Below the pieces are notes generated by a model. That model did no database searches. It was not told the origin of the DNA and worked only from the letters and a program-made list of their open reading frames with translations. 64,000 bases of DNA from Candidatus Omnitrophota bacterium (GTDB lineage Bacteria; Omnitrophota; Gorgyraeia; Gygaellales; Profunditerraquicolaceae): the NCBI GenBank assembly GCA_041651115.1, contig JBAZJY010000002.1, positions 286,855 to 350,854 on the forward strand, read 5' to 3'. A program made the position numbers and the translations under genes. Of this stretch, positions 46,895 through 64,000 are shown in pieces (position 1 is the stretch's first letter; every line of letters begins with the position of its first letter).

Positions 46895-47347
46895 ATGCTG
46901 GAAGAAAAGATCTTGAATGATTACAAGGATGCGATGAAGGCAAGGGACAGCCTGAAGAGTTCGGTTTTAAGTTGCCTGCGCGCGGAGATCATGAATACGG
47001 CGCTGGCAAAAAAGAAAAATAATCTTGACGATAACGAGGTACTTGCCGTTATCAAAAAGCAGGTTAAGCAGCATCAGGATTCTATTGACCAGTTCACTAA
47101 GGGCAACCGGCTTGACCTTGCGGAAAAGGAAGCAAAAGAGCTGAAGATCCTGGAAGCATACCTGCCGGCGCAGCTCTCTGCGGATGAGCTTAAGAAAATC
47201 GTTGAAGAAATAATCGTTTCTACCGCTGCCAGCGGCATGAAAGACATGGGCAAGGTAATGAAGGAAGCAACTGCCCGCGTAGGCGCCAGCGCCGACAGTA
47301 AAACCTTAAGCGACCTGGTAAGGGCAAAGCTGGCAAGCCCCGCCTAA
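46895..47347 (+). CDS. GatB/YqeY domain protein
   Basis: 150 aa; characteristic KDAMKARD...LRAE N-terminus. Confidence 0.8.
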   Translation: MLEEKILNDYKDAMKARDSLKSSVLSCLRAEIMNTALAKKKNNLDDNEVLAVIKKQVKQHQDSIDQFTKGNRLDLAEKEAKELKILEAYLPAQLSADELKKIVEEIIVSTAASGMKDMGKVMKEATARVGASADSKTLSDLVRAKLASPA

Positions 47348-47368: not shown

Positions 47369-47452
47369 TTGACAAACAGCCGGATATAAGGTATATTTTG
47401 ACTATTGGAACACCACTATTTTTTTAGGGCCGCTTTGTGATACTTTTCACAA
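47369..47452 (+). promoter_or_regulatory. Promoter TTGACA-N17-TATATT followed by perfect Rex operator TTGTGA-TACTTT-TCACAA (47435-47452)
   Basis: Read directly; matches Rex consensus TTGTGAAnnnnnnTTCACAA at every conserved position; upstream of hydrogenase operon. Confidence 0.65.
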
Positions 47453-48361: not shown

Positions 48362-48366
48362 TTTTT

Positions 48367-50109
48367 ATGGATAAGAAGATCATATTATTAAAGGATACCG
48401 AAAGCTCTGCCCAGGATACTACCCGCGACGTTTACACGCTTTTTGTAAATCAGGTCAGGGAAGGCGGGCTTGAAGAAAAAGTACAGGTAGTCAGGGTGGC
48501 TGACATCGGTATTTATAACCAGGGCGTGATCGTTAAGGTCATGCCGGATAACGTCATATACTCCAATGTCAAGGAGCCTGATATCAGCCGGATCATTGAG
48601 CAGACCGTAAAAACGGGCAAGGTGATTGAAGAATTGCGCTTTAAACAGCCGCCCAAGCAGATAAGGATCGTGCTGCGTAATTGCGGAGTGATTGACCCGG
48701 AAAATATAGACGATTATATTGCCGTTGACGGCTATCAGGCATTAAGGAAAGTTTTATTTGAATATACCCCGGAAAAAGTCATTGAAGAAATGAAAAAAAG
48801 CAGCTTGCGCGGCAGAGGAGGCGCAGGTTTTCCTACTTGGCTGAAATGGAAGCTTACCCGCGACATAAAAGCCGATCAGAAATATATTATCTGTAATGCC
48901 GATGAAGGCGATCCGGGCGCGTATATGGACAGGAGCGTACTGGAAGGCGATCCGCATTCAGTCATTGAAGGCCTGGCCATTGCCGGTTTTGCCATCGGCG
49001 CCTCCCAGGGCTATTTTTATGTCAGGGCAGAATATCCGCTGGCAGTAGAAAGGGCTAAGAAGGCGATTACGCAGGCGCGTGAATACGGGCTTTTGGGAAA
49101 AGATATTTTAGGGAGCGGCTTTGATTTTGACTTAGACATAAGGTTAGGCGCCGGGGCATTTGTCTGCGGCGAAGAAACCGCGTTGATCGCTTCAATCGAA
49201 GGCAAACGCGGCACCCCGCGTCCGCGTCCGCCGTATCCTTCAGTCAAAGGGTTATGGGATAAACCTACGGCGATCAATAACGTTGAAACGCTGGCAAATA
49301 TCGCTCCGATAATCTTAAAAGGCGGGGATTGGTATGCTTCAATCGGCACGGAAAAATCAAAAGGCACCAAGGTATTTGCGCTTACCGGAAAAGTAAAAAA
49401 TTCCGGGCTGGTAGAAGTGCCGATGGGCATTACTTTGCGGGAGATAGTTTTTGATATTGGCGGCGGGATGATCTCTTCCAAAGGCATAAAGGCAGTGCAG
49501 ACCGGCGGCCCGTCAGGCGGGGTGATCCCCAAAGAATACCTGGATACGCCGGTTGATTATGAGAACCTGCAGAAGCTCGGCTCGATCATGGGTTCAGGCG
49601 GCATGATCGTCATGGACGAAGACGATTGCATGGTGGACATTGCCAAATTTTATCTCGGGTTTTGCGTGGATGAATCTTGCGGTAAGTGCGTTCCCTGCCG
49701 CATCGGCGGCTATCAGATGCTTACGGTATTAAACAGGATATCCGAAGGTAAGGGCGTTTCTTCCGATAAGGATAAATTAAAGAAGATCGCGCAGGCGATG
49801 CAAAAGGCTTCGCTCTGCGCCTTGGGGCAGACCGCGGCAAACCCGGTTATTTCCACGCTTAAATATTTTGAAGAAGAATATAACGACCATATTGCCAACA
49901 AAAAATGCCGTTCGCACAAATGCACCCATTTACTGGCGTATAACATTATCCAGGAAAAATGCAAGCGCTGCCGGGTATGCGTGATCAATTGCCCGGTCAA
50001 TGCCATTGAAGGCGATAAGGAAAAAGGCTTTAATATCCGTATGGATACTTGCGTAAAATGCGGAAAGTGTTTTGAGGTATGTAAATTCGGGGCAATCTCC
50101 AAGGAGTAA
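48367..50109 (+). CDS. hndC: NuoF-like NAD(P)H-binding flavoprotein subunit with Fe-S clusters
   Basis: 580 aa; FMN/NADH motifs ([16 protein letters not shown]), C-terminal 4Fe-4S ferredoxin-like Cys motifs. Confidence 0.85.
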
Positions 50110-50113
50110 ATGA

Positions 50114-51859: not shown

Positions 51860-51926
51860 GATCTTAACGATCCTGCGGTAAGGAACCATGCGGTTCTGAA
51901 ACTAAGGGAAAGAGCGAGGAAAAATT

Positions 51927-51970
51927 GTCCCGATCTTTTCAGCAGGAACGAAGAGGTCGGGACTTATTTA
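51927..51970 (+). terminator. Putative terminator hairpin GTCCCGA-N23-TCGGGAC + TTATTTA
   Basis: Read directly after hndD stop; weak T-run. Confidence 0.35.
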
Positions 51971-52015
51971 TAATGATCCGTTTTGCGGGTCCTGCCTAAA
52001 AGGATGGAGGAGTTT

Positions 52016-52267
52016 ATGGAACGCAGGTTGGGATTTGTGGGGATTATCGTTGAGAACAGGAAAGCCGCGGCAGCCAGCGTGAACAAGGTACTTTCTGATT
52101 CCGGGGAGATCATCGCGGCAAGGATGGGCCTGCCGTACGCCAAGAAAAATTGCTGCGTGATTACCCTGATCGTTGACGCGACTACGGATGAGGTGGGCGC
52201 CTTGACCGGAAAGCTGGGCTTGATAAAAGGCGTATCGGTTAAATCCGCGCTGAGTAAATGCGGATAA
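52016..52267 (+). CDS. TM1266-like small ACT-fold protein (putative iron-only hydrogenase system regulator)
   Basis: 83 aa from ATG 52016 (SD GGATGGAGGAG); family recalled as co-occurring with hydEFG. Confidence 0.55.
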   Translation: MERRLGFVGIIVENRKAAAASVNKVLSDSGEIIAARMGLPYAKKNCCVITLIVDATTDEVGALTGKLGLIKGVSVKSALSKCG

Positions 52268-52274
52268 AAGAATA

Positions 52275-53666
52275 ATGAAGTATATTAACGAAACAAAGAT
52301 TAACGGTTTGTTGGAAGCGGCAAAAAAAGCAAGGCCGTTTGATATAGGCGCCATATTAGAGAAAAGCCGGAAACTTAAACGCCTCAATTTGGCAGAAACT
52401 GCTGCGCTTTTGGCTGCCGATGATCCGGAAAGCATAAAAAAGATCTTTGCCGCCGCCTCTTACGTAAAAGATACCATTTACGGCAGGCGGGTGGTGCTTT
52501 TTGCGCCCCTTTATATCAGTAATATCTGCGCTAACAACTGCCTTTACTGCGCGTTCAAGTCTGACAATACCATGACAAAGCGCCGCGCGCTTTCCGCGCG
52601 AGAGATAAAAGAACAGACAGAATGGCTGTTAAACCGCGGGCACAAACGCATTTTAATGGTTGCCGGAGAAGCTGCTCCGTCGGGAATGGCAAACGTTGAT
52701 TATTATGTTGAAGCAGTGCGGGCGATCTATTCTGCCGGCGTGGGGCAGCACCGCATAAAGCGCGTCAATGTCAACTGCGCGCCGTTAAGCACCGAAGAAT
52801 TCAAAAAATTAAAGGCTTCCGGCATCGGCACATACCAGTTATTTCAGGAAACTTATCATGAGGCGACTTACCGTAATGTACACATTAAAGGCCCGAAGTC
52901 AGACCCTGATAACCGCATCGACGCGGTTGACCGCGCGTTCCTTGCGGGCATAGACGATATCGGTATCGGCGCGCTTTACGGGCTCTATGACTGGAAATTT
53001 GAAACGCTGGCAATGCTTATGCACATAGAGCATATGGAGAGCCGCTTTAATGTCGGGCCGCATACGATCTCTGTGCCGCGCATTGAGCCTGCGCTGGGGG
53101 TGAGCTTTACGGAAGATATGCCTTATGCATTAAGCGATAATGAATTCAAGCGCTTAGTCGCGGTGTTAAGGCTTTCCGTGCCTTACACCGGCATAATCCT
53201 TTCCACGCGCGAGAGCCCTGATATGCGCGACGCGCTTTTCTCTCTGGGTGTATCACAGATCAGCGCCGAATCGCGCACTTCGCCCGGCGGCTATTCTTCG
53301 GATGATAATAACCGTAATCACGACATCCAATTCACCATCGGGGACCAGCGAAGCCTTGATGAGGTCATCGGTTCGTTGATCAAGCAAAAATTCATCCCCA
53401 GTTTCTGCGCTGCCTGTTACCGTAAAGAGCGCACGGGAAAGGCCTTTATGAAATTGGCAAAACCCGGAACGATTAAAGGTAAATGCAGCATGAACGCGCT
53501 GATTACTTTAAAAGAATACCTGGATGATTTTGCTTCAGCGGCGGTGAAACAGGAAGGTTACGCGCTTATCAATAAGCTTAAAGGAACCCTGGATCCTGCG
53601 GATCGAGAGATTTTGGCAAAATTTTTCCGTGGTATAGATAAAGGTAAGCGAGATGAGTTCGTTTAA
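52275..53666 (+). CDS. hydG: [FeFe] hydrogenase maturase HydG (radical SAM tyrosine lyase)
   Basis: 463 aa; CANNCLYC radical-SAM motif; C-terminal CxxC-N22-C auxiliary cluster. Confidence 0.85.
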   Translation: MKYINETKINGLLEAAKKARPFDIGAILEKSRKLKRLNLAETAALLAADDPESIKKIFAAASYVKDTIYGRRVVLFAPLYISNICANNCLYCAFKSDNTMTKRRALSAREIKEQTEWLLNRGHKRILMVAGEAAPSGMANVDYYVEAVRAIYSAGVGQHRIKRVNVNCAPLSTEEFKKLKASGIGTYQLFQETYHEATYRNVHIKGPKSDPDNRIDAVDRAFLAGIDDIGIGALYGLYDWKFETLAMLMHIEHMESRFNVGPHTISVPRIEPALGVSFTEDMPYALSDNEFKRLVAVLRLSVPYTGIILSTRESPDMRDALFSLGVSQISAESRTSPGGYSSDDNNRNHDIQFTIGDQRSLDEVIGSLIKQKFIPSFCAACYRKERTGKAFMKLAKPGTIKGKCSMNALITLKEYLDDFASAAVKQEGYALINKLKGTLDPADREILAKFFRGIDKGKRDEFV

Positions 53667-54705
53667 GATCCTGGTTTTATTAAAAGATGTATTGGACAGT
53701 CCTATGCCTGACCGTCGCGCCTTGGAATTTCTGCTTGGTCTTCAACGCGATGATCAAAAAAGGGTGCTTTTTGATTACGCCGATGCCATACGCAAACAAT
53801 TTGCCGGAGACGGTATACTTTTACGGGGCATAATTGAATTTTCCAGCTATTGCAAGAACCGCTGTTTTTACTGCGGGCTAAGCAGCCGCAATAAAGCGTT
53901 AAAGCGTTATCGCCTTAGCCTTGAGGAAATATTAGAAAGCGCCGAACAGGTCGCTTCGGCAAAAATTAAGACTGTTGTTTTACAGTCAGGCGAAGACCCG
54001 AAAACTGACAGTAAATGGCTGGCGGAAATAATCAAGGAAATAAAATCCCGTTTTGCCGATATGGCAGTCACTCTGGCCGTAGGCGAAAGGCCGGCTAAAG
54101 ACTATAAACTTTGGCGAAGGGCAGGCGCGGACAGGTATTTACTTAAGATCGAGACATCGGATAGGAAATTATACCGCAGGCTGCATCCGGGAATGAGCTT
54201 TGAAAACCGGCTAAAGTGCCTTAAGGAGTTGAAGAAGTCGGGTTATCAAGTCGGCTCGGGAAATATTATCGGCCTAAAAGGCCAGACCATAGAGAGTATC
54301 GCGCGTGATATTATTTTTTTTAAGGAGCGCGGCTTTGAAATGATCGGCATTGGGCCGTTCATCCCGCATGATAAGACCGAGCTGGCAAAAGAAACTCGCG
54401 GCGATATAGCGCTTACTTTAAAAGCGCTGGCATTGACGCGCGTAGTTACCAAATACGCGCATCTACCGGCAACCACTGCTTTAGGCAGCCAGGAAAAAGA
54501 CTTTCGTATAGACGGGCTTAAGGCAGGGGCAAACGTTTTGATGCCGAATTTTACCCCTCAAGGATACAAGGCGCGTTATGAAATATATCCGGGTAAAAGG
54601 TGCGTCGGAGAGTCTTCCGGTGAATGCAGCGGTTGCATGGAAGCAAAAGCAAGGTCAATTGGCAGGTTCATAGATTATTCACGAGGAGACGCGTTAAATG
54701 TATAG
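53653..54705 (+). CDS. hydE: [FeFe] hydrogenase maturase HydE (radical SAM)
   Basis: 350 aa; CKNRCFYC motif; BioB-like fold. Confidence 0.8.
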   Translation: MSSFKILVLLKDVLDSPMPDRRALEFLLGLQRDDQKRVLFDYADAIRKQFAGDGILLRGIIEFSSYCKNRCFYCGLSSRNKALKRYRLSLEEILESAEQVASAKIKTVVLQSGEDPKTDSKWLAEIIKEIKSRFADMAVTLAVGERPAKDYKLWRRAGADRYLLKIETSDRKLYRRLHPGMSFENRLKCLKELKKSGYQVGSGNIIGLKGQTIESIARDIIFFKERGFEMIGIGPFIPHDKTELAKETRGDIALTLKALALTRVVTKYAHLPATTALGSQEKDFRIDGLKAGANVLMPNFTPQGYKARYEIYPGKRCVGESSGECSGCMEAKARSIGRFIDYSRGDALNV

Positions 54706-55906
54706 GACGCCGGCAAGTAACAGATTGCATATAGGGATATTCGGCAAGAGGAATACAGGTAAATCCAGCTTGATCAACGCACTGACCGGGCAGGATACTG
54801 CTATTGTCTCAGAGATTGCCGGCACGACCACCGATCCGGTTTATAAGGCAATGGAGATCAACCCTATCGGTCCGTGCATGTTAATCGATACTGCGGGTAT
54901 TGACGATGAAGGGATACTGGGAGAAGAACGGGTTAAACGTACATTAAAGGTTTTACGGAAAACCGACGTTGGGATTATTGTTGTTAACCCGGATACTCTA
55001 ATAGATAAATTTGAGGATGACCTGACAGCAGTTTTTAAAGATAAGAAGCTTCCCTTTATTTTCGTGATTAATAAATGTGATTTGGCAGGAACCAGGGCCG
55101 AGGAATACCTTAGGGCTGGGTCTTTGCCTTATATTAAAGTAAGCAGCGCTACCAAGGAAGGCATTGAAGAATTAAAGAAAAAAATCATGGATATTGCTCC
55201 GGGGCATTGGTCGCCGGTGCCTTTGGTAGGCGATATAATCAACAGCAAAGATACGATCGTGCTTGTCTGCCCGATTGACAGTGCTATGCCGCAAGGCAGA
55301 TTGATCTTGCCGCAGGTGCAGGTAATGCGCGACATACTTGACAACAACGCAATGGCTTTTGTCACCAAGGAAACAGAGCTGGATGCGGTCATCGCTTCTT
55401 TAAAAGAAAAACCCAGGCTGGTGATCACTGATTCACAGGTATTTGAGATTGTGCGCGACAGCCTGCCTAAAGATATCCCTTTAACGTCTTTCTCAACGGT
55501 TTTTGCCCGGCACAAAGGCGACTTACGCGCGTTTATCCAGGGAGTTTACGCAGTGGAGCATTTATCAGACGGCGACGAAATACTCATCGCGGAAGCCTGC
55601 ACGCACCATGTGCAGCCTGAAGATATCGGCAGGACCAAGATCCCCACCTGGCTTTTGAATTACACGCATAAGGAATTGCATTATGAGGTAACTGCCGGCG
55701 GTGATTTTCCCGACGACCTAAGCAGGTTTAAGCTGGTGATCTCCTGCGGCGGGTGTATGGTTAATCGCCGCGAATTATTGCACCGCATAGAAAAAGCGAA
55801 AAGTCAGAATATACCGATCACCAATTACGGTGTGTTAATGGCTTACCTTTCCGGAATTTTAGACCGCATCATTGAGCCTTTTAAAGGCGGGGTAGTAGCA
55901 GTATAA
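54698..55906 (+). CDS. hydF: [FeFe] hydrogenase maturation GTPase HydF
   Basis: 402 aa; P-loop GKRNTGKSS; C-terminal CxH...HCGGC cluster motif. Confidence 0.85.
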   Translation: MYRTPASNRLHIGIFGKRNTGKSSLINALTGQDTAIVSEIAGTTTDPVYKAMEINPIGPCMLIDTAGIDDEGILGEERVKRTLKVLRKTDVGIIVVNPDTLIDKFEDDLTAVFKDKKLPFIFVINKCDLAGTRAEEYLRAGSLPYIKVSSATKEGIEELKKKIMDIAPGHWSPVPLVGDIINSKDTIVLVCPIDSAMPQGRLILPQVQVMRDILDNNAMAFVTKETELDAVIASLKEKPRLVITDSQVFEIVRDSLPKDIPLTSFSTVFARHKGDLRAFIQGVYAVEHLSDGDEILIAEACTHHVQPEDIGRTKIPTWLLNYTHKELHYEVTAGGDFPDDLSRFKLVISCGGCMVNRRELLHRIEKAKSQNIPITNYGVLMAYLSGILDRIIEPFKGGVVAV

Positions 55907-55959
55907 AAATCTTGTGGCAAGAAGTTGCGGACAGTGTTAATATATGAAGGGGTGAACAT

Positions 55960-56322
55960 ATGAAAAAAGCCGTAATCGCGCTTATCGTATTGGTCGTGGC
56001 AGCAGCGTTCACTTGGCTGTTCCTGTATAACGGCATTGGCCGCTATAAATCAATGGTATTTGCGACCAATAACAGCAAGAACGCGGAAAAGCTAAAAGCA
56101 GGCATGGTCAAAAGCGAAGTGCTGACGATCATGGGCCCGCCTAATAAAGTGGAAATATATTCCGTAAACGGCCAGATACTTGAATTTTTGCTTTATCGCA
56201 CCAAAGCCTTTGATTTTTTCTTTAAGGATAAAGAGGCTAATTTTCTGCCTGTTGCCGTGGATAACACAAGCGGAAGGGTATTGAGCCTGGACAGGAGTTT
56301 TTATCTGGAGACCAGGAAATAA
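55960..56322 (+). CDS. Hypothetical N-terminally membrane-anchored protein
   Basis: 120 aa; single TM. Confidence 0.4.
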   Translation: MKKAVIALIVLVVAAAFTWLFLYNGIGRYKSMVFATNNSKNAEKLKAGMVKSEVLTIMGPPNKVEIYSVNGQILEFLLYRTKAFDFFFKDKEANFLPVAVDNTSGRVLSLDRSFYLETRK

Positions 56323-56337
56323 TTACCGTGGGGCGTT

Positions 56338-57369
56338 ATGCATAAAAAATTTATTTTTTCCGGTATTATTCTGTTTCTCGGCATTTGCCTTGGCGTTACG
56401 ACATCCTACGCGGAAAATAATGATTTTACAACCGGCTATCTCTGCGACTACGCGATGCAGCTGCACAGGCAAGGCAGGACCAGCGATGCCGTGCACCAAC
56501 TGGAAATAGCCCTTACTATTGACCCGGGGAATCAACTTGCCCTTAAATATCTTGATAAGATCAGCCCCGGGAACAAAAGATCCCGCAAGCCTGCCGGCAG
56601 CAGCCAAGCAGATGACTATGCCGCCAGGTTAAGGTCAATGCAGGAGGTGCAGGACGTTGCATTAGAGCGTGAAAAGGAATTACAGCTTTCAGTTAAGGAT
56701 AAAGAAAGCCGGCTTGAAACCTTGAGCAGCCAGCTGGAAAATTTTAAGTCTGCGATGGCTCAAAAAGATAAGGAATTGAAGCAAATAGAATCACAGTTGG
56801 AATCTGAAAAAGGCAGCCTTGCCAGCAAGGAAGAGGAACTAAGCTCTTTGCTCCAAGATAAGCAAAACGAGGTAGAACAGCTTAAGAAAAAGATGCTCGA
56901 GTTGGAGGGGGAAAAACGTTCCTATGAGAACGAACTGGAATCCCTTAACGCGTCCCTTTCGGAAAAAGAAAGCAGCCGTCAGGAACTTACCCGGGAACTT
57001 GAATCATTAAAAGGCCAATACGCCGAAGACCTCAAGCGCAACGAAGAGGATTTGGAAAAGGCGAGGCAGGATTATGAAAACCGCCTGATCTCTCTCGGCG
57101 GACAGCTTCAGGTAAAAGAAACGCTGATCCAAAAATTAAAGGATGATAATGCGGCAATGCTGGAAAAAGGCAAGCAGGAAAGACAAGAACAGTTAGGCCG
57201 GGTAGAAAAATTAATGGGTGAAATAGAAGAAATATTCCCCGATAAAGAAGAGTTGAAAGGCCGGACAGCAACTTCGTATGATGATATTGACGCAAAGAAC
57301 CGGCAGTTGGACAGAATAGACAGGCTGATGAAAGAAATTGAGGAAGTCCTGCCCGAATCCGATTTGTGA
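56338..57369 (+). CDS. Exported TPR + long coiled-coil protein
   Basis: 343 aa; signal peptide; heptad-rich (LE/SLK repeats). Confidence 0.5.
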   Translation: MHKKFIFSGIILFLGICLGVTTSYAENNDFTTGYLCDYAMQLHRQGRTSDAVHQLEIALTIDPGNQLALKYLDKISPGNKRSRKPAGSSQADDYAARLRSMQEVQDVALEREKELQLSVKDKESRLETLSSQLENFKSAMAQKDKELKQIESQLESEKGSLASKEEELSSLLQDKQNEVEQLKKKMLELEGEKRSYENELESLNASLSEKESSRQELTRELESLKGQYAEDLKRNEEDLEKARQDYENRLISLGGQLQVKETLIQKLKDDNAAMLEKGKQERQEQLGRVEKLMGEIEEIFPDKEELKGRTATSYDDIDAKNRQLDRIDRLMKEIEEVLPESDL

Positions 57370-57438
57370 ATTTACGCATTCTCCGTTCGTAATATCCCGT
57401 ATTAATAAAAAAGCAACTTTCTGTGCGAGGAGCTATAG

Positions 57439-57798
57439 ATGAAAAGATTTGTGCTTTATTTATTTCGTTGGCAGTTAAGTACCCCGATACTCTGGTTGGT
57501 GTTGAGAAAAATGGGCGCGGGCATATTTGCGACGGTAGTCGCGAACTTGATCGGCGGAGCGATATTCTTCTGGGTGGATAAATTTATCTTTACTTCGCAT
57601 GCGATCGAAGTCTGGCACATTAAAGAAAAAGGCATCTGCGATAAATGCGGCAAGGAAGCAAGCGTCTGGAGGCTGGTCAAGGCAAAAAATTACGACCGTT
57701 CAGGGTCAAGGCCGGTTTTCCTTTGCAGCCGCTGTTCTAAGGAAAAACTTAGCGAATTAAAATCAAGGGGAATCAAACCAAATAGCCCGATAAAATGA
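57439..57798 (+). CDS. Membrane protein with C-terminal CxxC...CxxC zinc-ribbon
   Basis: 119 aa; 2 TM then CDKCG...CSRCS. Confidence 0.4.
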   Translation: MKRFVLYLFRWQLSTPILWLVLRKMGAGIFATVVANLIGGAIFFWVDKFIFTSHAIEVWHIKEKGICDKCGKEASVWRLVKAKNYDRSGSRPVFLCSRCSKEKLSELKSRGIKPNSPIK

Positions 57799-59720
57799 TC
57801 GCCATAAATAACCTTTCCAAGAATTACGGCAAGAAAGTCCTTTTTAACGATCTTAGCCTTACAATTAACCGGGGAGAGAAAATCGGCCTTATCGGGCCAA
57901 ACGGCACAGGTAAGACTACGCTTTTTTCCATGATCCTCGGAGAGACAGAGCCGTCAAGCGGCTCGGTGCAGGTCTTAAAAAATACCCGTATCGGCTACCT
58001 GCCGCAGGAAGCCAGTTTTAAATCTGCTCACACGGTTTTATCCGAGGTTGCCGGAGGCGACAGCCATATCATGCGGCTGATAAATGAAAAAGAGCAGCTG
58101 GAGTCCAAAAACGAAGCCGGCTCAAAACGATACGGCGAAGTATTGCATGAATTGGAAACACTCGGATATTTTGAGTTGGAATATAAAGCAAAAAAGATCC
58201 TCATGGGACTTGGTTTTAAGGAAACGGATTTTAACCGCCCGATAACCGAGCTAAGCGGCGGCTGGCAGATGCGTACGCTGCTGGCAAAGCTCCTGGCATT
58301 TCATTATGATATTCTTCTCTTAGACGAGCCCACCAATTACCTGGACTTGAATGCCGCGATCTGGCTTAAAGATTACCTTGCCGGCTTTAAAGGCACGTTC
58401 CTGATGATCTCCCATGATAAGGCTTTCCTCAACGAGGTAACCAATTACACTTTAATCCTGGAAAACGGCTCGATCTTTAAAGTACAGGGAAATTATGAGC
58501 ATTACGAGGCAATAAAAGAAGAGCGGCGCACTTTCCTGATTAGGCAATTTAAGGAAACCGAGAAAAAGCGCGAGCAGCTGGAGAAATTCATTGCCCGTTT
58601 TCATGCCCAACCCAATAAAGCAGCGGCAGTGCGGGCAAAGCGCACGGCGCTGGAGCGCCTGGAAGAGGTCATTGTCCCGCCTGATCCCCGCGAGAGCATC
58701 CACAGTTTTCGTTTTCCGCCTACGCATCAAAGCGGCCAGCGGGCGATCTCGCTTAAGAAAATTTCCAAAGCCTATGGCCAGCTTCAGGTATATAAAGATT
58801 TTGATTTTGAGATTGAGCGCGGAGAAAAGGCAGTGCTTGCCGGTGAAAACGGCGCGGGTAAATCCACGCTGCTTAAAATACTTGCCGGCGTGATCAACAT
58901 TGACTCCGGAGAACGGAGCCCCGGATACAATGTGGACATCGGGTATTTTTCCCAGACGCGGCTTGACGTGCTTAACCCGGAAAATAGCGTGCTGCAGGAG
59001 GCGTATACTGCTGCGCCGGGATATATGTCACAGGAGGTGATCCGCACGGTGCTGGGGGCATTTTTATTCACCGGAGACGATTCCGATAAAAAAGTCAAAG
59101 TGCTTTCCGGCGGCGAGAAGAGCCGGTTGATACTGGCAAAGCTTTTACTTAACCCTCCCAATTTCCTGCTGCTGGATGAGCCGACAACTCACCTTGACGT
59201 GGATGCGGTGGATGCGCTGATCAAGGCGCTTAATTCCTACGAAGGTACGATCGTCTTTATCAGCCACGATATCCATTTTGTGCGTTCGGTAGCCAATACC
59301 GTCTTTGAGGTAAAAGACGGCAGGGTAAGGAAATTCCCCGGCAGCTTTGATTATTATCTGGAGAAGAAAGAAAAAGGGGAATTACCTCTAGCGGATACCG
59401 GGCATAAGCCGGGCTTGGCACGGCAAGAAAAACCTGCGGCAAAAGCAAGGAAAGAAGGCGAAGAATTAAGGCATAAAGAAGATGAAACAAGGCGCAAATT
59501 CCATAATTTTGAAGTTAAGGAGAAAATAAAGAAATTAAAAGCGGAGAAAGAAAGCCTTAATTTAGAATATCTTGCCAAGAAGCGCGCCGTAGAAAACCCC
59601 CGCAGTTACCGCGATAATGAGGCGTTAGAGCAATACATTGAGCGCATACAGGAGATCGAGCAGCGCTTCTGCGAGATCAGCGACCAAATCCGTTCTCTTA
59701 AGAAGCAAATTGAGAAATAG
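57795..59720 (+). CDS. ABC-F family ATPase (two ABC domains + C-terminal coiled coil)
   Basis: 641 aa; two Walker A (GPNGTGKTT, GENGAGKST), two LSGG signatures, no TM domain. Confidence 0.85.
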   Translation: MIAINNLSKNYGKKVLFNDLSLTINRGEKIGLIGPNGTGKTTLFSMILGETEPSSGSVQVLKNTRIGYLPQEASFKSAHTVLSEVAGGDSHIMRLINEKEQLESKNEAGSKRYGEVLHELETLGYFELEYKAKKILMGLGFKETDFNRPITELSGGWQMRTLLAKLLAFHYDILLLDEPTNYLDLNAAIWLKDYLAGFKGTFLMISHDKAFLNEVTNYTLILENGSIFKVQGNYEHYEAIKEERRTFLIRQFKETEKKREQLEKFIARFHAQPNKAAAVRAKRTALERLEEVIVPPDPRESIHSFRFPPTHQSGQRAISLKKISKAYGQLQVYKDFDFEIERGEKAVLAGENGAGKSTLLKILAGVINIDSGERSPGYNVDIGYFSQTRLDVLNPENSVLQEAYTAAPGYMSQEVIRTVLGAFLFTGDDSDKKVKVLSGGEKSRLILAKLLLNPPNFLLLDEPTTHLDVDAVDALIKALNSYEGTIVFISHDIHFVRSVANTVFEVKDGRVRKFPGSFDYYLEKKEKGELPLADTGHKPGLARQEKPAAKARKEGEELRHKEDETRRKFHNFEVKEKIKKLKAEKESLNLEYLAKKRAVENPRSYRDNEALEQYIERIQEIEQRFCEISDQIRSLKKQIEK

Positions 59721-59793
59721 GGCCAGGTGTATTTAGCCAATTCAGCGGTAATCCAGCCATTGACAGATAGGGGAATAGGGGTAAAATAATAGT

Positions 59794-60321
59794 ATGAAAC
59801 GAAGCACGAAAATACTGTTAATTATCTTAATTGTTGCTCTCGCGGCCTTTGTAGCCAGGGCGTATGTCCTGCTTGCTGCCAGGCTTGTAGAGAACAACAT
59901 AGAGATGCAGGAAAACAGGGCGCAGCTAAAGCAGGAGCAGGAAGCAAGGCAGTTGCTGGAGCTTGAATTAAAGGCAACGCAGGAACAGCTGCAAAAGGTC
60001 ATCGCTGAGCTGAAGACCGTCAGCGATAAGCTTAGCAGCGCCGAAAAGAATAACCAGGCGTTATTGCAAGAAAAAAAGGAATTAGAAGCTAAATTGCATT
60101 CTTTAAAGGAACTGAAAAAAGCAATAAGGCAGACAAAAGCAGAATATCGCCAGGAGAAGGCGCAGCAATACCGCGCCAAGAAAGAAAAACAGAAAGAGAT
60201 CGATGCCCAGAGACTGGCGCAGGGCAACCGCGGTTTTCTGGTCAGGGATGGCCAACCCACCCATCAGCCAAAAGTAAAGATCGCAGTCGAACCTACAAGC
60301 GGGTTATTTCAGGGTAATTGA
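59794..60321 (+). CDS. Membrane-anchored coiled-coil protein
   Basis: 175 aa; N-terminal TM then Q/E/K-rich heptads. Confidence 0.45.
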   Translation: MKRSTKILLIILIVALAAFVARAYVLLAARLVENNIEMQENRAQLKQEQEARQLLELELKATQEQLQKVIAELKTVSDKLSSAEKNNQALLQEKKELEAKLHSLKELKKAIRQTKAEYRQEKAQQYRAKKEKQKEIDAQRLAQGNRGFLVRDGQPTHQPKVKIAVEPTSGLFQGN

Positions 60322-60717
60322 CATAACTTTACTCTCGTTGTTCTTCATGAGAGTGTATTCAACGCTAACTTTATCCCCCGCCTTCAAATCCTTTAGCTTC
60401 AGGATATTCTTTTTATAATCCAACACCATGATCAGCCCGGGCACAAAAGAAAAATCCCGCTGGTTACCTTTGTCATCAACCACCGTAATTTTATATGTTG
60501 AACCCTGGCTATTCCCGGGTTTTGTTATTGCCTCTATTTTTCCTTCAAAAACATCTGAGTTAATAAAAGTATCTGCCGTAAGGTCAGTTTTATACCGGAT
60601 CTCCTTTATAAACGGCACATGTTCGCCCTCTCTGATCCTTGTTTCTTCCACTTCCAGGGCTAAGCATAAAGGAACAAGGGATAAAATAAAGAATACGGCA
60701 AGCAGCATCTTTTTCAT
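60304..60717 (-). CDS. Exported hypothetical protein (the only convincing minus-strand gene in the window)
   Basis: 137 aa; signal peptide MKKMLLAVFFILSLVPLCLA; convergent overlap with 59794 gene. Confidence 0.55.
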   Translation of the reverse strand: MKKMLLAVFFILSLVPLCLALEVEETRIREGEHVPFIKEIRYKTDLTADTFINSDVFEGKIEAITKPGNSQGSTYKITVVDDKGNQRDFSFVPGLIMVLDYKKNILKLKDLKAGDKVSVEYTLMKNNESKVMSITLK

Positions 60718-60829
60718 ACATTTAATTTACACTGTTTTAACGCATAAGTCAAGCATTGCCCTTTTTTCCTTGCTAATTTCAAACAAGTGTAGTATATTAT
60801 AGAAGTTCTTCTTTTTATTTTTGCAATTT

Positions 60830-60847
60830 TTGTGATAAATTTCACAA
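60830..60847 (+). promoter_or_regulatory. Second perfect Rex operator TTGTGA-TAAATT-TCACAA, 30 nt upstream of the 60877 gene
   Basis: Read directly; TATATT -10-like box at 60793. Confidence 0.6.
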
Positions 60848-60876
60848 AGAACCAGTTATTTTAATCTACTTGCAGG

Positions 60877-61932
60877 GTGCATAACTTCTATTATCTAGAA
60901 AGCGCCGGAATAAACGAATTATTAACCCGCCTGAAAAACGATCACGCTATTTTTTTTCCCGTCGTAAGGCCCGCTAATTTCACCAAGGAAACCGACTATT
61001 CTTACCAGAATTTTTCCGACAACCGGCAGTTTATTTTTAATCCTTATCGCGTGATCGAGCCGCTTAAGTCTTTTCTTACGCCGGCAATGGAAAAAACCGC
61101 CGATTATTTCAGCCCCCAAAAAGAAGCGGTTGATCCGGGAAAAACAATTATTTTCGGTGCGAAAAATTGTGACATTGCTTCACTGAAGATCCAGGATTTT
61201 GTCTTTATGGAAGGCGTGGAAGTGGATTATTCTTACCGCGTCAAGCGCGAAAACACAATTATCGTTTCCAGCGACTGCACGGAATATAAAGAAGTTTGTT
61301 TTTGCCTTGCCCTTGACATCCTGCCTTATCCCACGCAGGGTTTTGATATAAACCTTTCGCCGGTATCCGACGGATACCTGGTTGAGGCCGGTTCGGAAAA
61401 GGGAAAAAATTTCATCCGGCAATTCAGGGATTATTTTTCCGAAGCAAAGGACGCGCAGGTTTGGGCAAGGAAGACAAAACGGGAAGACATTGTCCAGCGG
61501 CTTAAGCGCCACCTCCTGCCGCAGAACATACCTGCCAAAGACAGCCTGCAGCGCCTGGTCAAAGACGGGTATGGCCTTGATACCTGGAAGCAGTTCATGC
61601 TTACCTGCGTTGAATGCGGCGGATGTAATTTCGTCTGCAATACCTGCCATTGTTTTCTTCTGGCTGACAAAAGCGAAGACGGCCGCAATAAGCGGCTTAA
61701 GGCCTGGGATTCCTGCCAATACGCGAATTACGCGACAGTAGCCGGAGGCGCCAATCCTCTAAAGCTGCGCCATGAACGGCTGCGGTTCAGGTTCACTAAA
61801 AAATTTGATTTTTTTATGGAAAATCTGGGCATGCCTGCCTGCTGCGGCTGCGGCAGGTGCATTGAAGTTTGCCCGGGAAAGATCGATCTCAGGGAAGTCT
61901 GGAAAGACCTGGAGCAAAAATTAAAGAAATGA
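60877..61932 (+). CDS. AsrA / sulfhydrogenase-beta-like Fe-S subunit
   Basis: 351 aa (GTG start); C-terminal CxxCxxCxxxC and CCGCGRC motifs. Confidence 0.55.
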   Translation: MHNFYYLESAGINELLTRLKNDHAIFFPVVRPANFTKETDYSYQNFSDNRQFIFNPYRVIEPLKSFLTPAMEKTADYFSPQKEAVDPGKTIIFGAKNCDIASLKIQDFVFMEGVEVDYSYRVKRENTIIVSSDCTEYKEVCFCLALDILPYPTQGFDINLSPVSDGYLVEAGSEKGKNFIRQFRDYFSEAKDAQVWARKTKREDIVQRLKRHLLPQNIPAKDSLQRLVKDGYGLDTWKQFMLTCVECGGCNFVCNTCHCFLLADKSEDGRNKRLKAWDSCQYANYATVAGGANPLKLRHERLRFRFTKKFDFFMENLGMPACCGCGRCIEVCPGKIDLREVWKDLEQKLKK

Positions 61933-62744
61933 GAAATATTTATACCCCGTTTGAAGCTATTGTCGAAGAGATTATCCCTGAAACGCCGGCAATAAAAACT
62001 TTTGTCATCAGGCCGAAGGAAAAATTCAGCTTTAGGACCGGCCAGTTCATCGAGTTGACCCTTCCGGGGATAGGGGAGGCGCCGTTTACTCCGTCTTCTG
62101 ACCCGGACGTAAAAGACAGATTTGAAGTGACCGTGATGAATGCCGGCAGGGTAACTTCTTTACTGCACGCGCTGCGGAGCAATTTTTCCGTCGGTATACG
62201 CGGCCCTTACGGCAAGGGCTATCCTTTGGATACGTTCAGCGGTAAGGATATCCTGATCGTCGGAGGAGGCGTGGGGCTGGCGCCGCTGCGTTCGCTTTTA
62301 TTCAGCCTTTTTTCCGGGATGGATAAATATAATAAAGTTGTGCTGCGCTACGGCGCGCGCTCTCCGGAAGACATCGTTTACCGGCAGGCGATACCGCAGT
62401 GGCAGCAAAAGGACAAAGTTGATATTGTTGTGACCGTAGATAAAGGGGACAGCCAGTGGAAGGGTAATGTCGGTGTGGTCACTACCATCTTGAATGACCT
62501 GCCTGTTGACCTGAAAAATTGCGCGGTGATTGTCTGCGGCCCGCCGGTAATGATGAAATTCGCTACGATGAAGTTGCTGGAAGTGGGTTTTCAGCCGAAT
62601 GACATTTATCTCTCAATGGAAAAAAACATGTCCTGCGGCCTGGGAAAATGCGGGCATTGCCGCATCGGCAAGTTCTATACCTGTAAAGACGGCCCGGTGT
62701 TTACTTACGGTCAGATCAAGGATATTTACGATATTTGGGAGTAA
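61929..62744 (+). CDS. AsrB / sulfhydrogenase-gamma / PyrK-like FAD-NAD(P)H oxidoreductase with C-terminal [2Fe-2S]
   Basis: 271 aa; RxYS-type FAD site, GGGVGLAP NAD site, C-terminal CGLGKCGHC...C. Confidence 0.65.
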   Translation: MRNIYTPFEAIVEEIIPETPAIKTFVIRPKEKFSFRTGQFIELTLPGIGEAPFTPSSDPDVKDRFEVTVMNAGRVTSLLHALRSNFSVGIRGPYGKGYPLDTFSGKDILIVGGGVGLAPLRSLLFSLFSGMDKYNKVVLRYGARSPEDIVYRQAIPQWQQKDKVDIVVTVDKGDSQWKGNVGVVTTILNDLPVDLKNCAVIVCGPPVMMKFATMKLLEVGFQPNDIYLSMEKNMSCGLGKCGHCRIGKFYTCKDGPVFTYGQIKDIYDIWE

Positions 62745-62746
62745 GG

Positions 62747-63238
62747 ATGAAACGCCTGTTCATAGACCTGGATATCTGTAATGAATGCGCGGAATGCCGC
62801 GTGGTTTGCGGGTATTTTTATCACCCCCAGAATAACGGCGTGGCTAACCTCCGGGAATACGCTACATTCGCGACTATCTGCCGGCATTGCGATGAGGCGC
62901 CCTGCGTGAATTCCTGTTATCATAACGCGCTTGAGCGTGCCAGCGACGGACATTTAAAGCGCTATAAGATGCGCTGCACCAGCTGCAAGTCTTGCACAAT
63001 AGCTTGCCCGTTCGGCATAATCTTCCAGGATTTCATACCTTATCTTGACTCCAAGTGCGATTATTGCTTGGGGCTGGCCGGAAAGCTTCCCAAATGCGTG
63101 ACGAGCTGCCCGGAAAAAGCCATAGAGCTCAAAGAAATAGAAGAAGACCCTGGGCAGAATATTTATTTGATCGGAGACCGCCTGGCAGTGCGCACGCGGA
63201 AATGGTCAAGGGAAGACATCAAGGCCAAGAAAAAATAA
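62747..63238 (+). CDS. HycB/HyfA-like polyferredoxin (4x[4Fe-4S])
   Basis: 163 aa; four Cys clusters CNECAECRVVC / CRHCDEAPC / CTSCKSCTIACP / CDYC...C...CP. Confidence 0.7.
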   Translation: MKRLFIDLDICNECAECRVVCGYFYHPQNNGVANLREYATFATICRHCDEAPCVNSCYHNALERASDGHLKRYKMRCTSCKSCTIACPFGIIFQDFIPYLDSKCDYCLGLAGKLPKCVTSCPEKAIELKEIEEDPGQNIYLIGDRLAVRTRKWSREDIKAKKK

Positions 63239-63247
63239 AGGGCAAAG

Positions 63248-64000
63248 TTGATAAAAACATTTTTCAATTATTTGGTATTTCCCGGTTTTATTTTCAGCGC
63301 GGTTATCGGGCTGATCGCCGGATGGGTTGACCGCAAGGTCAGCGCGCGACTTCAGTGGCGCGTAGGGCCGCCCTGGCATCAGAATTTTACCGACATTATA
63401 AAACTCTTCGGTAAGGAGATCATTGTGCCGCTCAACGGCCGCTGGACATTTTTACTTGCCCCTTATATCGGGCTTTTGGGTCTGACCCTGGCAGCGACGA
63501 TCTTAGGCAAGGCAGCCGGTTTATCTTTTGGAGGGTTTAGCGGCGACTTGATCGTTATTTTGTATCTTCTGCTGATGCCGGCAGCTTCTTTGATCATCGG
63601 CGCTTCGGCGTCCGGCAACCCGCTTGCTTCCGTGGGCGCCTCCAGGGAAATGAAGCTTGTGCTGGCATATGAATTGCCGCTTATCCTTTCGGTGATCGCG
63701 GTAGCGATCAAGGCCGCGGGCGCGATAAGGCTGGAACAGCTTATCCTTGCGCAATCTGCATCCGGGTCGTTCATTTTTTCTTTTTCCGGGGCGCTCGCTT
63801 TTATCGCAGCGCTTATTGCAACTCAAGCAAAATTAGGCCTTGCGCCGTTTGATGTTTCCGAGGCAGAGCAGGAAATAATGGCCGGGGTATTGATTGAATA
63901 TTCCGGCCTGCCTTTGGCAGTGTATAAGTTAAATAAAGCGATCCTCCTTTATACCATGCCGTTATTTTTGATCCTGCTGTTCTTGGGCAAGGACCTGAAT
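63248..64000 (+). CDS. NuoH/HycD/EchB-family membrane subunit of an energy-converting (group-4 [NiFe]-hydrogenase/complex-I-like) complex; 3' partial, runs off window
   Basis: TTG start; open frame to window end; NuoH signature GWVDRKVSARLQWRVGPP...QNFTDIIKLFGKE; not in ORF track because no stop in window. Confidence 0.6.
   Translation, partial: MIKTFFNYLVFPGFIFSAVIGLIAGWVDRKVSARLQWRVGPPWHQNFTDIIKLFGKEIIVPLNGRWTFLLAPYIGLLGLTLAATILGKAAGLSFGGFSGDLIVILYLLLMPAASLIIGASASGNPLASVGASREMKLVLAYELPLILSVIAVAIKAAGAIRLEQLILAQSASGSFIFSFSGALAFIAALIATQAKLGLAPFDVSEAEQEIMAGVLIEYSGLPLAVYKLNKAILLYTMPLFLILLFLGKDLN

Follow-up and report, generated by a model that had tools for sequence, protein, structure and literature searches.

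What kind of enzyme is encoded at the 3′ end of this 64,000-nucleotide stretch of Omnitrophota DNA (the window), where genes resembling the NAD(P)H module of a soluble sulfhydrogenase run directly into genes for a membrane-bound, complex I-like core? The operon comprises 17 to 18 genes, the first four of which fall at the window end on the forward strand. They encode an AsrA/ShyB-like (sulfhydrogenase-β) Fe-S subunit (60877..61932, 351 aa, GTG start), an AsrB/HydG-like (sulfhydrogenase-γ) FAD, NAD(P)H and [2Fe-2S] subunit (61929..62744, 271 aa), a HycB-like ferredoxin with four [4Fe-4S] motifs (62747..63238, 163 aa) and a NuoH/MbhM/HycD-like membrane subunit with a TTG start, cut by the window end (63248..64000; PF00146, 1.2e-49). 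Profile matches placed these genes where the sequence-only reading had put them. That reading also had them coupled by ATGA overlaps; this is true of the AsrA- and AsrB-like genes, but a 2-nt spacer separates the AsrB- and HycB-like genes and a 9-nt spacer precedes the TTG start of the NuoH-like gene. The possibility that the latter is a pseudogene or fragment was dispelled by the 487-kb source contig (ENA metagenome), where it is a complete ORF of 304 aa (L001 10502-11416; window-equivalent end 64162). The complex-I-like modules anticipated downstream are present as well: NuoB-, NuoC- and NuoD-like genes continue the operon past the window end and are followed by genes for three NuoL/M/N-type antiporter-like subunits and MrpB-G homologues. 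By their coordinates, the genes from asrA to mnhG either overlap or are separated by spacers of 9 nt or less.

The first two products have the features of a sulfhydrogenase β-γ module. The AsrA-like protein matched Pfam Fer4_22 (5.7e-27) and NCBIfam ShyB (2e-47), HydB (2e-42) and AsrA (4e-38), with all of these NCBIfam matches far under the equivalog cut-offs, and it aligned with the β subunit of P. furiosus SHI (PDB 9nez_B, 2e-37). Its AF2 model (pLDDT 88.7) was matched to the same chain by Foldseek (TM 0.83/0.85), and 15 of its 16 cysteines are invariant among 56 orthologues. The AsrB-like protein carries the Pfam domains FAD_binding_6, NAD_binding_1 and DHODB_Fe-S_bind, and matched NCBIfam AsrB (7e-67), HydG (2e-57) and the SHI γ subunit (PDB 9nez_C, 2e-56); its GGGVGLAPLR, RGPYG and CGPP motifs and four [2Fe-2S] cysteines are invariant (58 orthologues). 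The β Fe-S fold and the γ motifs for FAD, NAD(P)H and [2Fe-2S] are thus present, as judged by Foldseek against 9nez_B and alignment to 9nez_C. Whether the AsrB-like subunit prefers NADH or NADPH cannot be read from its sequence.

Two known enzymes that contain such subunits were considered and rejected. A group-3b sulfhydrogenase did not fit because the partner is a group-4 core rather than the soluble group-3b α and δ subunits, and because the sulfhydrogenase equivalog scores were not reached (162 against a cut-off of 690 bits and 192 against 650 bits). Anaerobic sulfite reductase AsrABC was set aside because the siroheme subunit AsrC is absent from the operon and the AsrA and AsrB equivalog scores were likewise missed (132 against 323 bits and 225 against 289 bits, respectively).

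The sequence-only reading had left it uncertain whether the large subunit keeps its NiFe-binding CxxC motifs. Both are retained in the 402-aa NuoD-like protein (Pfam NiFeSe_Hases and Complex1_49kDa), as RICGICSSSH and DPCYCCTER, and RICGICSxSH and DPCYxCTxR were found in 79/79 orthologues, which also have a C-terminal extension of 32-52 aa after the motifs, of the type cleaved by a maturation protease. Retention of both motifs identifies the enzyme as a true group-4 [NiFe] hydrogenase rather than a relic of the Mbx/Ehr type. A NuoB-like small subunit with one [4Fe-4S] site (Cys22/25/89/119, invariant among orthologues) accompanies it, together with NuoC-, NuoH- and NuoL-like subunits. The closest solved structures of the large subunit are MbhL (group 4d; 287 bits, 2.3e-84) and HycE (group 4a; 261 bits, 1.8e-76). 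The Mrp part was recognized by three matches to Proton_antipo_M and by MbhD/MbhE, MnhB, Oxidored_q2 (MnhC), MNHE, MrpF_PhaF and PhaG_MnhG. In the literature, Mrp-linked Omnitrophota enzymes are assigned to group 4g (PMC8542988), and the present enzyme may belong with them.

Between the NAD(P)H module and the core lies a peripheral arm of the formate hydrogenlyase type. The HycB-like ferredoxin encoded in the window (Fer4_11, 2e-13) has four cysteine motifs with 16 cysteines in total, all 16 invariant among 62 orthologues, and matched HycB4 of HDCR (1.6e-12) and HycB of the E. coli formate hydrogenlyase (1.5e-11) in the PDB. Its counterpart, a two-cluster HycF/NuoI-like subunit, is encoded by the last gene of the operon in 48 loci and in the closest relative, and with this subunit the wiring becomes formate hydrogenlyase-like. 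The contig sequence examined ends in mnhG; judging from the relatives, the remainder of that gene and a HycF-like gene would follow. No molybdopterin gene that could provide a formate dehydrogenase catalytic subunit was found in the operon or its flanks.

The order AsrA-AsrB-HycB-NuoH-NuoB-NuoC-NuoD is intact in 52/52 related species-level genomes with enough upstream sequence, and also in two more distant lineages. The combination of an NAD(P)H module with a group-4 membrane core in a single operon, singled out in the sequence-only reading as unusual, is a fixed arrangement in all of the related genomes that were examined. The membrane arm occurs in three versions, but the NAD(P)H module stays with each of them, and the cofactor residues are invariant despite an overall identity of merely 53-80%. 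An NCBI MAG labelled 'Elusimicrobia' has the same operon as the window. Upstream of asrA the relatives usually carry yqeY, directly 5′ in about 38 loci, rather than another catalytic partner such as a formate dehydrogenase, CODH or AsrC; the window's yqeY (46895..47347, forward strand; Pfam YqeY, 1.5e-45) serves as a synteny anchor. The operon is conserved across the uncultured phylum Omnitrophota and encodes the standard hydrogenase of the whole phylum.

A perfect match to the Rex-type operator, TTGTGATAAATTTCACAA, lies at 60830..60847 on the forward strand, 30-47 nt before the AsrA-like start codon; its start had been quoted as both 60830 and 60831, and the former is correct. A putative sigma-70-like promoter (TTGCTA-17-TATATT, 60770..60798, forward strand), recognized by its consensus match (9/12), is located 32 nt upstream of the box. 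A second perfect box (47435..47452, forward strand) precedes the HydC-(117 aa)-HydB-HydA [FeFe] hydrogenase operon (47528-51859), to which the NuoE/F-like genes at 47528-50109 belong. The promoter of that operon (TTGACA-17-TATATT) is 38 nt upstream of its box, the same geometry as for asrA. Two perfect boxes in the window compare with 0.09 expected by chance, and 0/100 shuffles gave two. In 18/52 related loci a perfect box precedes asrA at -27 to -74, with nearly none elsewhere in these loci, and the distant L085 has a box with one mismatch. There is no rex gene in the 64-kb window, and a rex gene adjoins asrA in five relatives (L023, L032, L047, L067 and L070). The core TGTGA-N6-TCACA is also that of CRP sites and is compatible with CRP-family proteins, so Rex is named as the probable regulator on the strength of the neighbouring rex genes. 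The predicted control of the operon by Rex is backed by the conserved position of the box and by these adjacent genes, and the second perfect box marks the [FeFe] hydrogenase operon as its putative co-regulated partner.

We favour, with a probability of roughly 0.55, a Rex-controlled, reversible NAD(P)H:H+ oxidoreductase with Na+/H+ translocation, in which a formate hydrogenlyase-like arm would carry a β-γ module in place of formate dehydrogenase. The gene content, the intact cofactor motifs, the linkage kept among relatives and the recurring Rex box with rex genes beside it are observations, whereas the union of all products in one complex, NAD(P)H as its substrate, the direction of the reaction and the ion translocated are what we infer. 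The sulfhydrogenase β-γ-like module would be the port through which electrons enter or exit. They would pass from NAD(P)H to FAD and the [2Fe-2S] cluster of the AsrB-like subunit, then through three [4Fe-4S] clusters in the AsrA-like, four in the HycB-like, two in the HycF/NuoI-like (the last operon gene in relatives) and one in the NuoB-like subunit to the NiFe site of the NuoD-like subunit, where 2H+ and H2 would be interconverted. Turnover at the NuoH/NuoD interface would be coupled to Na+/H+ movement via the three antiporter-like subunits and the Mrp B-G homologues.

Rex would keep both this operon and that of the nearby [FeFe] hydrogenase repressed until the ratio of NADH to NAD+ climbs, so the main job of the operon would probably be to vent excess reducing equivalents as H2. 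Under standard conditions, making H2 from NAD(P)H is an endergonic reaction (textbook E0' values, -320 versus -414 mV). Venting could conserve energy at low H2 pressure, and at higher H2 pressure the ion gradient would have to drive it. Against the NAD(P)H:H+ oxidoreductase, outward pumping would require either low H2 or NADPH to be feasible, and the canonical Rex box is present in just 18/52 relatives. Hydrogenases of groups 3b, 3d and A3 are pyridine-nucleotide-coupled, according to the HydDB descriptions and general knowledge. Ace Lake Omnitrophota MAGs have a single hydrogenase each, of group 3b, 3d, A3 or 4g (PMC8542988), which would fit a group 4g enzyme with AsrAB in the same role.

Published annotations also count against our preferred reading. 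They take reduced ferredoxin as the donor (PMC8542988, PMC9324843), following HydDB, where group 4g is listed as putatively ferredoxin-coupled. Reduced ferredoxin would then feed the HycB- or HycF-like clusters of an Mbh that makes H2 and pumps ions, with the AsrA/AsrB-like pair as a side branch that exchanges electrons with NAD(P)+ in either direction. Such an enzyme would join Fd:H+ with Fd:NAD(P)+ (or H2:NAD(P)+) reactions, and its main donor would be something other than NAD(P)H. Ferredoxin does serve the related MBH and Ech enzymes, MbhL is the nearest large subunit of solved structure, and the window encodes a 2-oxoacid:ferredoxin oxidoreductase. The surface clusters of the four-cluster HycB-like protein could dock ferredoxin, but in formate hydrogenlyase HycB is a wire to a dedicated donor enzyme rather than a port for ferredoxin. 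An optional side branch is hard to reconcile with an NAD(P)H module that is kept in 52/52 loci with invariant cofactor residues, and control by Rex suggests that NADH is the signal that matters. We therefore consider a ferredoxin-driven enzyme unlikely, though a serious contender. Another arrangement, in which a soluble AsrA/AsrB/HycB-like NAD(P)H:ferredoxin-type oxidoreductase shares the operon with a separate ferredoxin-dependent Mbh and feeds it through a diffusible carrier, seems very improbable. AsrB-like and NfnA-like proteins do exist in soluble enzymes, but the tight translational packing, the position next to nuoH, which holds without exception across lineages and across the three membrane-arm variants, and the pairing of HycB with HycF as in an integrated formate hydrogenlyase-type arm all speak for one enzyme rather than two.

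The β-γ-like module might instead reduce polysulfide, S0 or another small acceptor with H2 or with electrons from the membrane arm. Precedents would be the sulfur reductase activity with which P. furiosus SHI was first credited and the chemistry of MBS, and the nearest relatives of both subunits are indeed sulfhydrogenase β and γ together with AsrA/AsrB. The S0 reductase activity of SHI, however, is regarded as non-physiological. Furthermore, the NiFe cysteines are intact, in contrast to MBS/Mbx-type complexes, the operon contains neither AsrC (siroheme) nor another sulfur gene, and its AsrB-like product has a strictly conserved NAD(P)-binding motif. A sulfhydrogenase or sulfane reductase bound to the membrane is accordingly the least probable of the explanations considered here.

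A wider proposal, which we advance tentatively and at somewhat less than even odds, is that Omnitrophota and some neighbouring candidate phyla possess a true 'proton-reducing complex I'. This would be an NAD(P)H:H+ oxidoreductase that runs in both directions and translocates Na+/H+, with a hydrogenase/Mrp core to which an NAD(P)H module of the sulfhydrogenase type, and not NuoEFG, was added independently. If that is true, the main hydrogenase of Omnitrophota would be pyridine-nucleotide-coupled, contrary to its annotation as ferredoxin-coupled. At low H2 the oxidation of NAD(P)H could then conserve energy, or NAD(P)H could be made from H2 while an ion gradient builds. The complex would in addition show, in a living organism, the kind of modular step that has been proposed for the transition from MBH to complex I.

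The enzyme type itself is not new; it has been noticed in metagenome papers and is known from genes alone. It was described in Saganbacteria RX5A as an 'enigmatic' group-4 [NiFe] hydrogenase (Matheus Carnevali et al. 2019, PMC6349859) and in groundwater Elusimicrobia as the 'Mbh-Mrp-oxidoreductase type' (Meheust et al. 2020, bioRxiv 10.1101/765248), with the closest sequences in Omnitrophica and Zixibacteria and the function left open by the authors of both. These types share asrA-, asrB- and cooF/hycB-like genes beside NuoH/B/C/D/I homologues and Mrp antiporter-like subunits. The Saganbacteria locus has an extra FdhH-like molybdopterin subunit, whereas the Omnitrophota operon lacks one and has yqeY or unrelated genes upstream; neither Rex control nor phylum-wide conservation is part of the earlier descriptions.

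Among characterized enzymes, P. furiosus SHI (group 3b, NADPH-dependent; PDB 9NEZ/9NF0) has β and γ subunits that match the first two gene products best in both sequence and fold, but there the β-γ pair docks on a soluble group-3b α-δ hydrogenase, whereas the Omnitrophota pair is linked to a membrane group-4 core. The AsrABC enzyme of Salmonella and Clostridium shares the AsrA- and AsrB-like families and differs by its AsrC. The P. furiosus MBH (group 4d, Mrp-linked, ferredoxin-dependent; PDB 6CFW) supplies the best solved large-subunit match, MbhL (2.3e-84), and has in common with the Omnitrophota operon MbhD/E, MnhB, C, E, F and G homologues and the NuoH-like MbhM. MBH takes ferredoxin electrons through MbhN alone and has one antiporter-like subunit; the Omnitrophota complex would have two or three of these and, in addition, HycB-, AsrA- and AsrB-like subunits. 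The same wire, from donor enzyme to HycB, HycF, HycG and HycE, is found in E. coli FHL-1 (group 4a; PDB 7Z0S) and in Thermococcus Fdh-Mfh-Mnh (group 4b), which has an Mrp module too; the FHL-1 matches are HycB-like to 7z0s_B (1.5e-11), HycF-like to 7z0s_F (1.4e-18) and large subunit to 7z0s_E (1.8e-76). The donor is formate dehydrogenase in FHL and an NAD(P)H flavoprotein pair in Omnitrophota. As in complex I, a pyridine-nucleotide dehydrogenase module would feed a NuoB/C/D/H/I core with antiporter-like subunits. The operon, however, contains no NuoEFG genes and its NAD(P)H module is unrelated to NuoEFG; its NuoD-like subunit keeps the NiFe ligands, and a NiFe centre stands as the acceptor site where complex I has a quinone pocket. 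The NAD(P)H module seems to have been recruited independently onto the same ancestral core.

The operon under study begins at 60877 on the + strand and runs off the end of the window at 64000. The four-gene arrangement claimed by the sequence-only reading was borne out by ORF listing and by Pfam and NCBIfam searches. The first gene (60877–61932, +; 351 aa, GTG start) encodes an AsrA-like or sulfhydrogenase-beta-like protein with a Fer4_22 domain (ShyB 2e-47, HydB 2e-42, AsrA 4e-38). It is followed by genes for an AsrB/HydG-family protein (61929–62744, +; 271 aa; 7e-67) with FAD_binding_6, NAD_binding_1 and DHODB_Fe-S_bind domains, for a HycB-like ferredoxin (62747–63238, +; 163 aa; Fer4_11) with four complete cysteine motifs and 16 Cys, and for a NuoH-like membrane protein of the NADHdh family (1.2e-49) that starts at TTG 63248 (+) and continues past the window end. 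ATGA overlaps had been described between these genes; translation of the junctions showed one at asrA/asrB only, with a 2-nt spacer between the AsrB-like and HycB-like genes. All NCBIfam scores fell far under the equivalog cut-offs, which makes the window proteins kin to the named enzymes but not members of those families.

We followed the operon 9.2 kb beyond the window on the 487-kb source contig L001 (ENA metagenome assembly ERZ27247363; L001 coordinate = window coordinate − 52746), which was matched through the exact HycB-like protein sequence. The NuoH-like gene is complete there, an intact ORF of 304 aa, and the possibility that it is a pseudogene or fragment was excluded. The genes that follow overlap or are separated by a few bases: a NuoB-like small subunit (149 aa), a NuoC-like subunit (141 aa), a NuoD-like large subunit (402 aa; NiFeSe_Hases and Complex1_49kDa), three antiporter-like subunits (464, 632 and 492 aa), an MbhD/E fusion, MnhB, MnhC, MnhE, MnhF and the start of MnhG. 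The candidate complex would have failed had the downstream genes been unrelated to complex-I-like modules, and the NuoB/C/D-like, antiporter-like and Mrp-type genes dispose of that objection. The sequence-only reading had also asked whether the NiFe-binding motifs survive. They do in the large subunit, as RICGICSSSH and DPCYCCTER with a tail of 39 residues behind them, so that both CxxC pairs are retained along with an extension removable by a maturation endopeptidase. An Mbx/Ehr-type complex lacking NiFe ligands was ruled out by these motifs, which are intact and invariant.

Relatives of the large subunit fall into more than 120 database clusters at 81–91% identity, mostly labelled as Omnitrophota or Omnitrophica MAGs, and occur in 254 species-representative genomes; the best 80 of the 254 are all Omnitrophota, a few of them mislabelled Planctomycetales or Patescibacteria. 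Gene order in related loci was determined by tblastn with the L001 proteins as queries. The order AsrA-AsrB-HycB-NuoH-NuoB-NuoC-NuoD was found on the same strand in 52/52 loci with enough upstream sequence, and the same operon is present in two more distant lineages (AsrA-like protein 45–47% identical), one labelled Elusimicrobia. The three-gene input module (AsrA-like, AsrB-like and HycB-like) is common to three versions of the membrane arm, which differ in what lies between the NuoD-like gene and the HycF-like one: three antiporter-like subunits plus Mrp B–G, as in L001 (11 loci, ~7.9 kb), two antiporter-like subunits plus Mrp (28 loci, ~5.6–6.5 kb), or one antiporter-like subunit without Mrp (9 loci, ~2.3–3.8 kb). 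In the closest relative, whose large subunit shares 90% identity, the version differs from that of L001, which suggests module swapping in the membrane arm. Residue conservation was scored over 56–79 orthologues with 53–80% overall identity to the window proteins. Invariant were 15/16 Cys of the AsrA-like protein, the four [2Fe-2S] Cys and the GGGVGLAPLR, RGPYG and CGPP motifs of the AsrB-like protein, 16/16 Cys of the HycB-like protein, the four NuoB-like Cys and the four NiFe Cys, a pattern that would be expected for one functional, cofactor-loaded machine.

Among operon and upstream genes of L001 and the related loci, no further catalytic partner is encoded, and molybdopterin, CODH and AsrC genes are all absent. 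An anaerobic sulfite reductase was ruled out by the lack of AsrC and by the sub-threshold scores, and a formate-linked complex as in Saganbacteria was ruled out for this clade by the lack of a molybdopterin gene. A search for cultured carriers through distant AsrA-like representatives returned MAGs only. In two representatives of this family, P0129 and P0164, the called gene joins the AsrA-like part to response-regulator receiver and histidine-kinase ATPase domains; these fusions may be artefacts of gene calling or may be signalling proteins that sense redox state. In the distant locus L085, CdhD and pterin-binding (Wood-Ljungdahl methyl-branch) genes (1–2419) lie a few kb from the hydrogenase operon, which hints at a tie to acetogenic metabolism in some carriers.

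The stretch read of L001 contains no NuoI/MbhN gene, and the HycB-like protein might have been its substitute. This was ruled out by a HycF/NuoI-like gene located after mnhG in 48 relatives. Its product is a conserved protein of 202–203 aa with two CxxCxxCxxxCP motifs, for which the top family match is the iron-sulfur subunit HycF of formate hydrogenlyase (FHL; 96 bits) and the top complex-type PDB matches are HycF (7z0s_F, 1.4e-18) and MbhN (6cfw_N, 1.6e-12). The gene ends the operon in 48 loci and in the closest relative, and would probably do so in L001, where the sequence read stops in mnhG. An EntS-like MFS transporter gene follows it in ~31 related loci (e.g. L008 19687–20961). Solved relatives of the first two genes are the beta (2e-37) and gamma (2e-56) subunits of P. 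furiosus soluble hydrogenase I (SHI), those of the third are HycB of HDCR and of E. coli FHL, and those of the large subunit are MbhL (2.3e-84) and HycE (1.8e-76). The AsrA-like protein as modelled by AlphaFold2 (pLDDT 88.7, pTM 0.88) superposed full-length on SHI beta with TM 0.83/0.85, the next match having TM 0.50. These relatives and the fit of the model point to a peripheral arm built as an FHL wire, running from donor through HycB, HycF and the NuoB-like subunit to NiFe. The beta2-loop of the AsrB-like protein (G-A-R-S/T...D...Y) has similar residues in NADPH-using SHI gamma and in NADH-using NfnA/PyrK, and hence does not discriminate between NADH and NADPH.

A perfect Rex box had been claimed for this operon, tying it to NADH/NAD+ status together with the [FeFe] hydrogenase, and the box was found. 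The palindrome TTGTGATAAATTTCACAA lies at 60830–60847, and its only other match in the 64 kb, also perfect, is at 47435–47452; 0.09 matches were expected by chance. The latter box precedes an operon for HydC (NuoE-like), a 117-aa protein, HydB (NuoF-like) and the [FeFe] hydrogenase HydA, followed by the maturases HydE, HydG and HydF. Both operons have a sigma-70-like promoter 32–38 nt upstream of the box. Among related loci, a perfect TTGTGA-N6-TCACAA box stands at −27 to −74 of asrA in 18/52, and a one-mismatch box precedes asrA in the distant L085; the canonical box is absent in two thirds of relatives. Other boxes with ≤1 mismatch in ~0.9 Mb of related loci were found only before a rex gene that itself precedes asrA. 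In five loci (L023, L032, L047, L067 and L070) rex is just upstream of asrA, and its product is 36–42% identical to B. subtilis Rex. The queries were Rex sequences of B. subtilis and Thermus; the Put_DNA-bind_N plus Rossmann architecture of these five proteins comes from a Pfam check independent of them. The 64-kb window itself contains no rex gene. CRP-family proteins recognise the same TGTGA-N6-TCACA core. The placement of the boxes, the adjoining rex genes and the L085 box support Rex over a CRP-family protein as the putative regulator, and the comparison demonstrates a conserved Rex-type operator common to this operon and the NADH-linked [FeFe] hydrogenase operon. In L009 and L031, 5-nt-spacer palindromes (TTGTGA-TCAGC-TCACAA; ATGTGA-TTTTT-TCACAT) occur instead ~60–80 nt upstream of asrA and may be decayed Rex sites or sites of another regulator.

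The gene upstream of asrA is usually yqeY, which directly precedes it in ~38 related loci; unrelated genes take this place in L001 and its closest relative. Here a 13.5-kb block (within 46895–60876) separates the two and contains a Rex box, HydC/117-aa/HydB/HydA, HydE/G/F, DUF3192, two coiled-coil proteins, ABC-F and a minus-strand ORF. The closest relative has part of the block, without HydABC. No compositional sign of foreign origin, such as a GC anomaly, was seen in the [FeFe] block. A motif upstream of hydC (tttttagggc..tttgtga) is similar to the leaders found before asrA in L031 and L007; from this likeness, the [FeFe] operon may now be under the ancestral promoter and operator, with a second copy at asrA. 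The minus-strand ORF (60304–60717), the only sizeable one of the region, encodes a protein of 137 aa that has a signal-peptide-like N-terminus and matches no Pfam family, and its counterpart in the closest relative (134 aa, minus strand) lies just upstream of asrA. Almost all genes of the window are on the + strand. Positions 1–46000 carry an oxidative-stress cluster (Rrf2, hybrid-cluster protein, desulfoferrodoxin, rubrerythrin, flavodiiron protein, rubredoxin and a thioredoxin reductase-like protein), a two-subunit 2-oxoacid:ferredoxin oxidoreductase, NifS/NifU, an RND efflux pump and an isolated RnfD/NqrB-like gene.

Sequence comparison demonstrates the gene content, the intact ligands, an obligatory linkage of input module and hydrogenase, and an FHL-like set of electron-transfer subunits. 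We infer that all operon products assemble into one complex, that NAD(P)H is its substrate and that turnover is coupled to Na+/H+ movement. An NAD(P)H-coupled, ion-translocating hydrogenase is the reading we favour, with a probability of about 0.55. That the linked genes specify two separate enzymes seems improbable, and so does a sulfur-reducing role. Mrp-linked enzymes of Ace Lake Omnitrophota and of Auribacterota were assigned to HydDB group 4g and modelled as ferredoxin-driven, with the flavoprotein module unmentioned (PMC8542988, PMC9324843). A ferredoxin-driven hydrogenase, with the NAD(P)H module as a side branch, is in our view less probable, the module being present in every genome examined.

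The potential of NAD(P)H is −320 mV; that of H2 is −414 mV at 1 bar and climbs to about −300 mV at 10 Pa H2. On these textbook values, the favoured NAD(P)H-coupled enzyme could form H2 from NAD(P)H, and might conserve energy in doing so, only where H2 is low or the NADPH pool is reduced. Outside these situations an ion gradient would drive NAD(P)H to H2; in the reverse direction, H2 would reduce NAD(P)+ while ions are exported. Rex repressors are released from DNA by NADH, and since the [FeFe] enzyme would be derepressed together with this one, Rex control argues for a role in reductant venting with H2 evolution. Hydrogenases of groups 3b, 3d and A3 are pyridine-nucleotide-coupled, in keeping with their HydDB descriptions. 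Ace Lake Omnitrophota MAGs have one hydrogenase each, of group 3b, 3d, A3 or 4g (PMC8542988), which fits 4g plus AsrAB in the same niche as 3b, 3d and A3. The L001 contig, unlike those single-hydrogenase MAGs, carries A3 and the group-4 enzyme together.

The finding of the sequence-only reading is real and was rightly interpreted; it is of moderate interest and not a new category, the operon encoding a described but uncharacterised kind of enzyme. In Saganbacteria, fdhH-, asrA-, asrB- and cooF-like genes adjoin the Mbh and Mrp subunits of an "enigmatic" group-4 hydrogenase, for which the closest sequences were in Omnitrophica and Zixibacteria and the extra genes were proposed as an oxidoreductase module (Matheus Carnevali et al. 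2019, PMC6349859). A "Mbh-Mrp-oxidoreductase type" of unknown function was described in Elusimicrobia (Meheust et al. 2020, bioRxiv 10.1101/765248). HydDB gives 4g as uncharacterised, the one [NiFe] subgroup listed with an undetermined role, and a module of this sort is not treated in a 2021 review of complex-I-like enzymes. The literature was searched for biochemical work on group-4 hydrogenases linked to AsrAB, and gave MAG-based remarks only. Added here are the universal occurrence, across a large set of Omnitrophota genomes, of a version free of formate dehydrogenase, the FHL-like wiring including the terminal HycF-like gene, the three membrane-arm versions and the comparative case for Rex control.

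The ubiquity of the flavoprotein module and the putative NADH-sensing repressor both alter the redox and energy balance predicted for this phylum, which is widespread, uncultured and in many cases dependent on hosts. A concrete hypothesis for biochemistry results, namely that ion translocation is coupled to the evolution or uptake of H2 with NAD(P)H. The enzyme is a good candidate, and one open to testing, for a complex I analogue that is driven by NAD(P)H and reduces protons. It is also a natural experiment in the attachment of different electron-input modules to the MBH/complex I core, which include formate dehydrogenase, CODH, NuoEFG, FpoF and, in this case, the sulfhydrogenase beta-gamma pair. 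The Saganbacteria enzyme has an fdhH-like gene, whereas the Omnitrophota operon is free of formate dehydrogenase. Compared with FHL, the electron wire is the same, and an NADPH-binding beta-gamma pair of the group-3b type stands at the place of formate dehydrogenase. That beta-gamma-like pair is shared with soluble group-3b hydrogenase, and the FHL-like arm is mounted on a membrane arm of the MBH/Mrp type.
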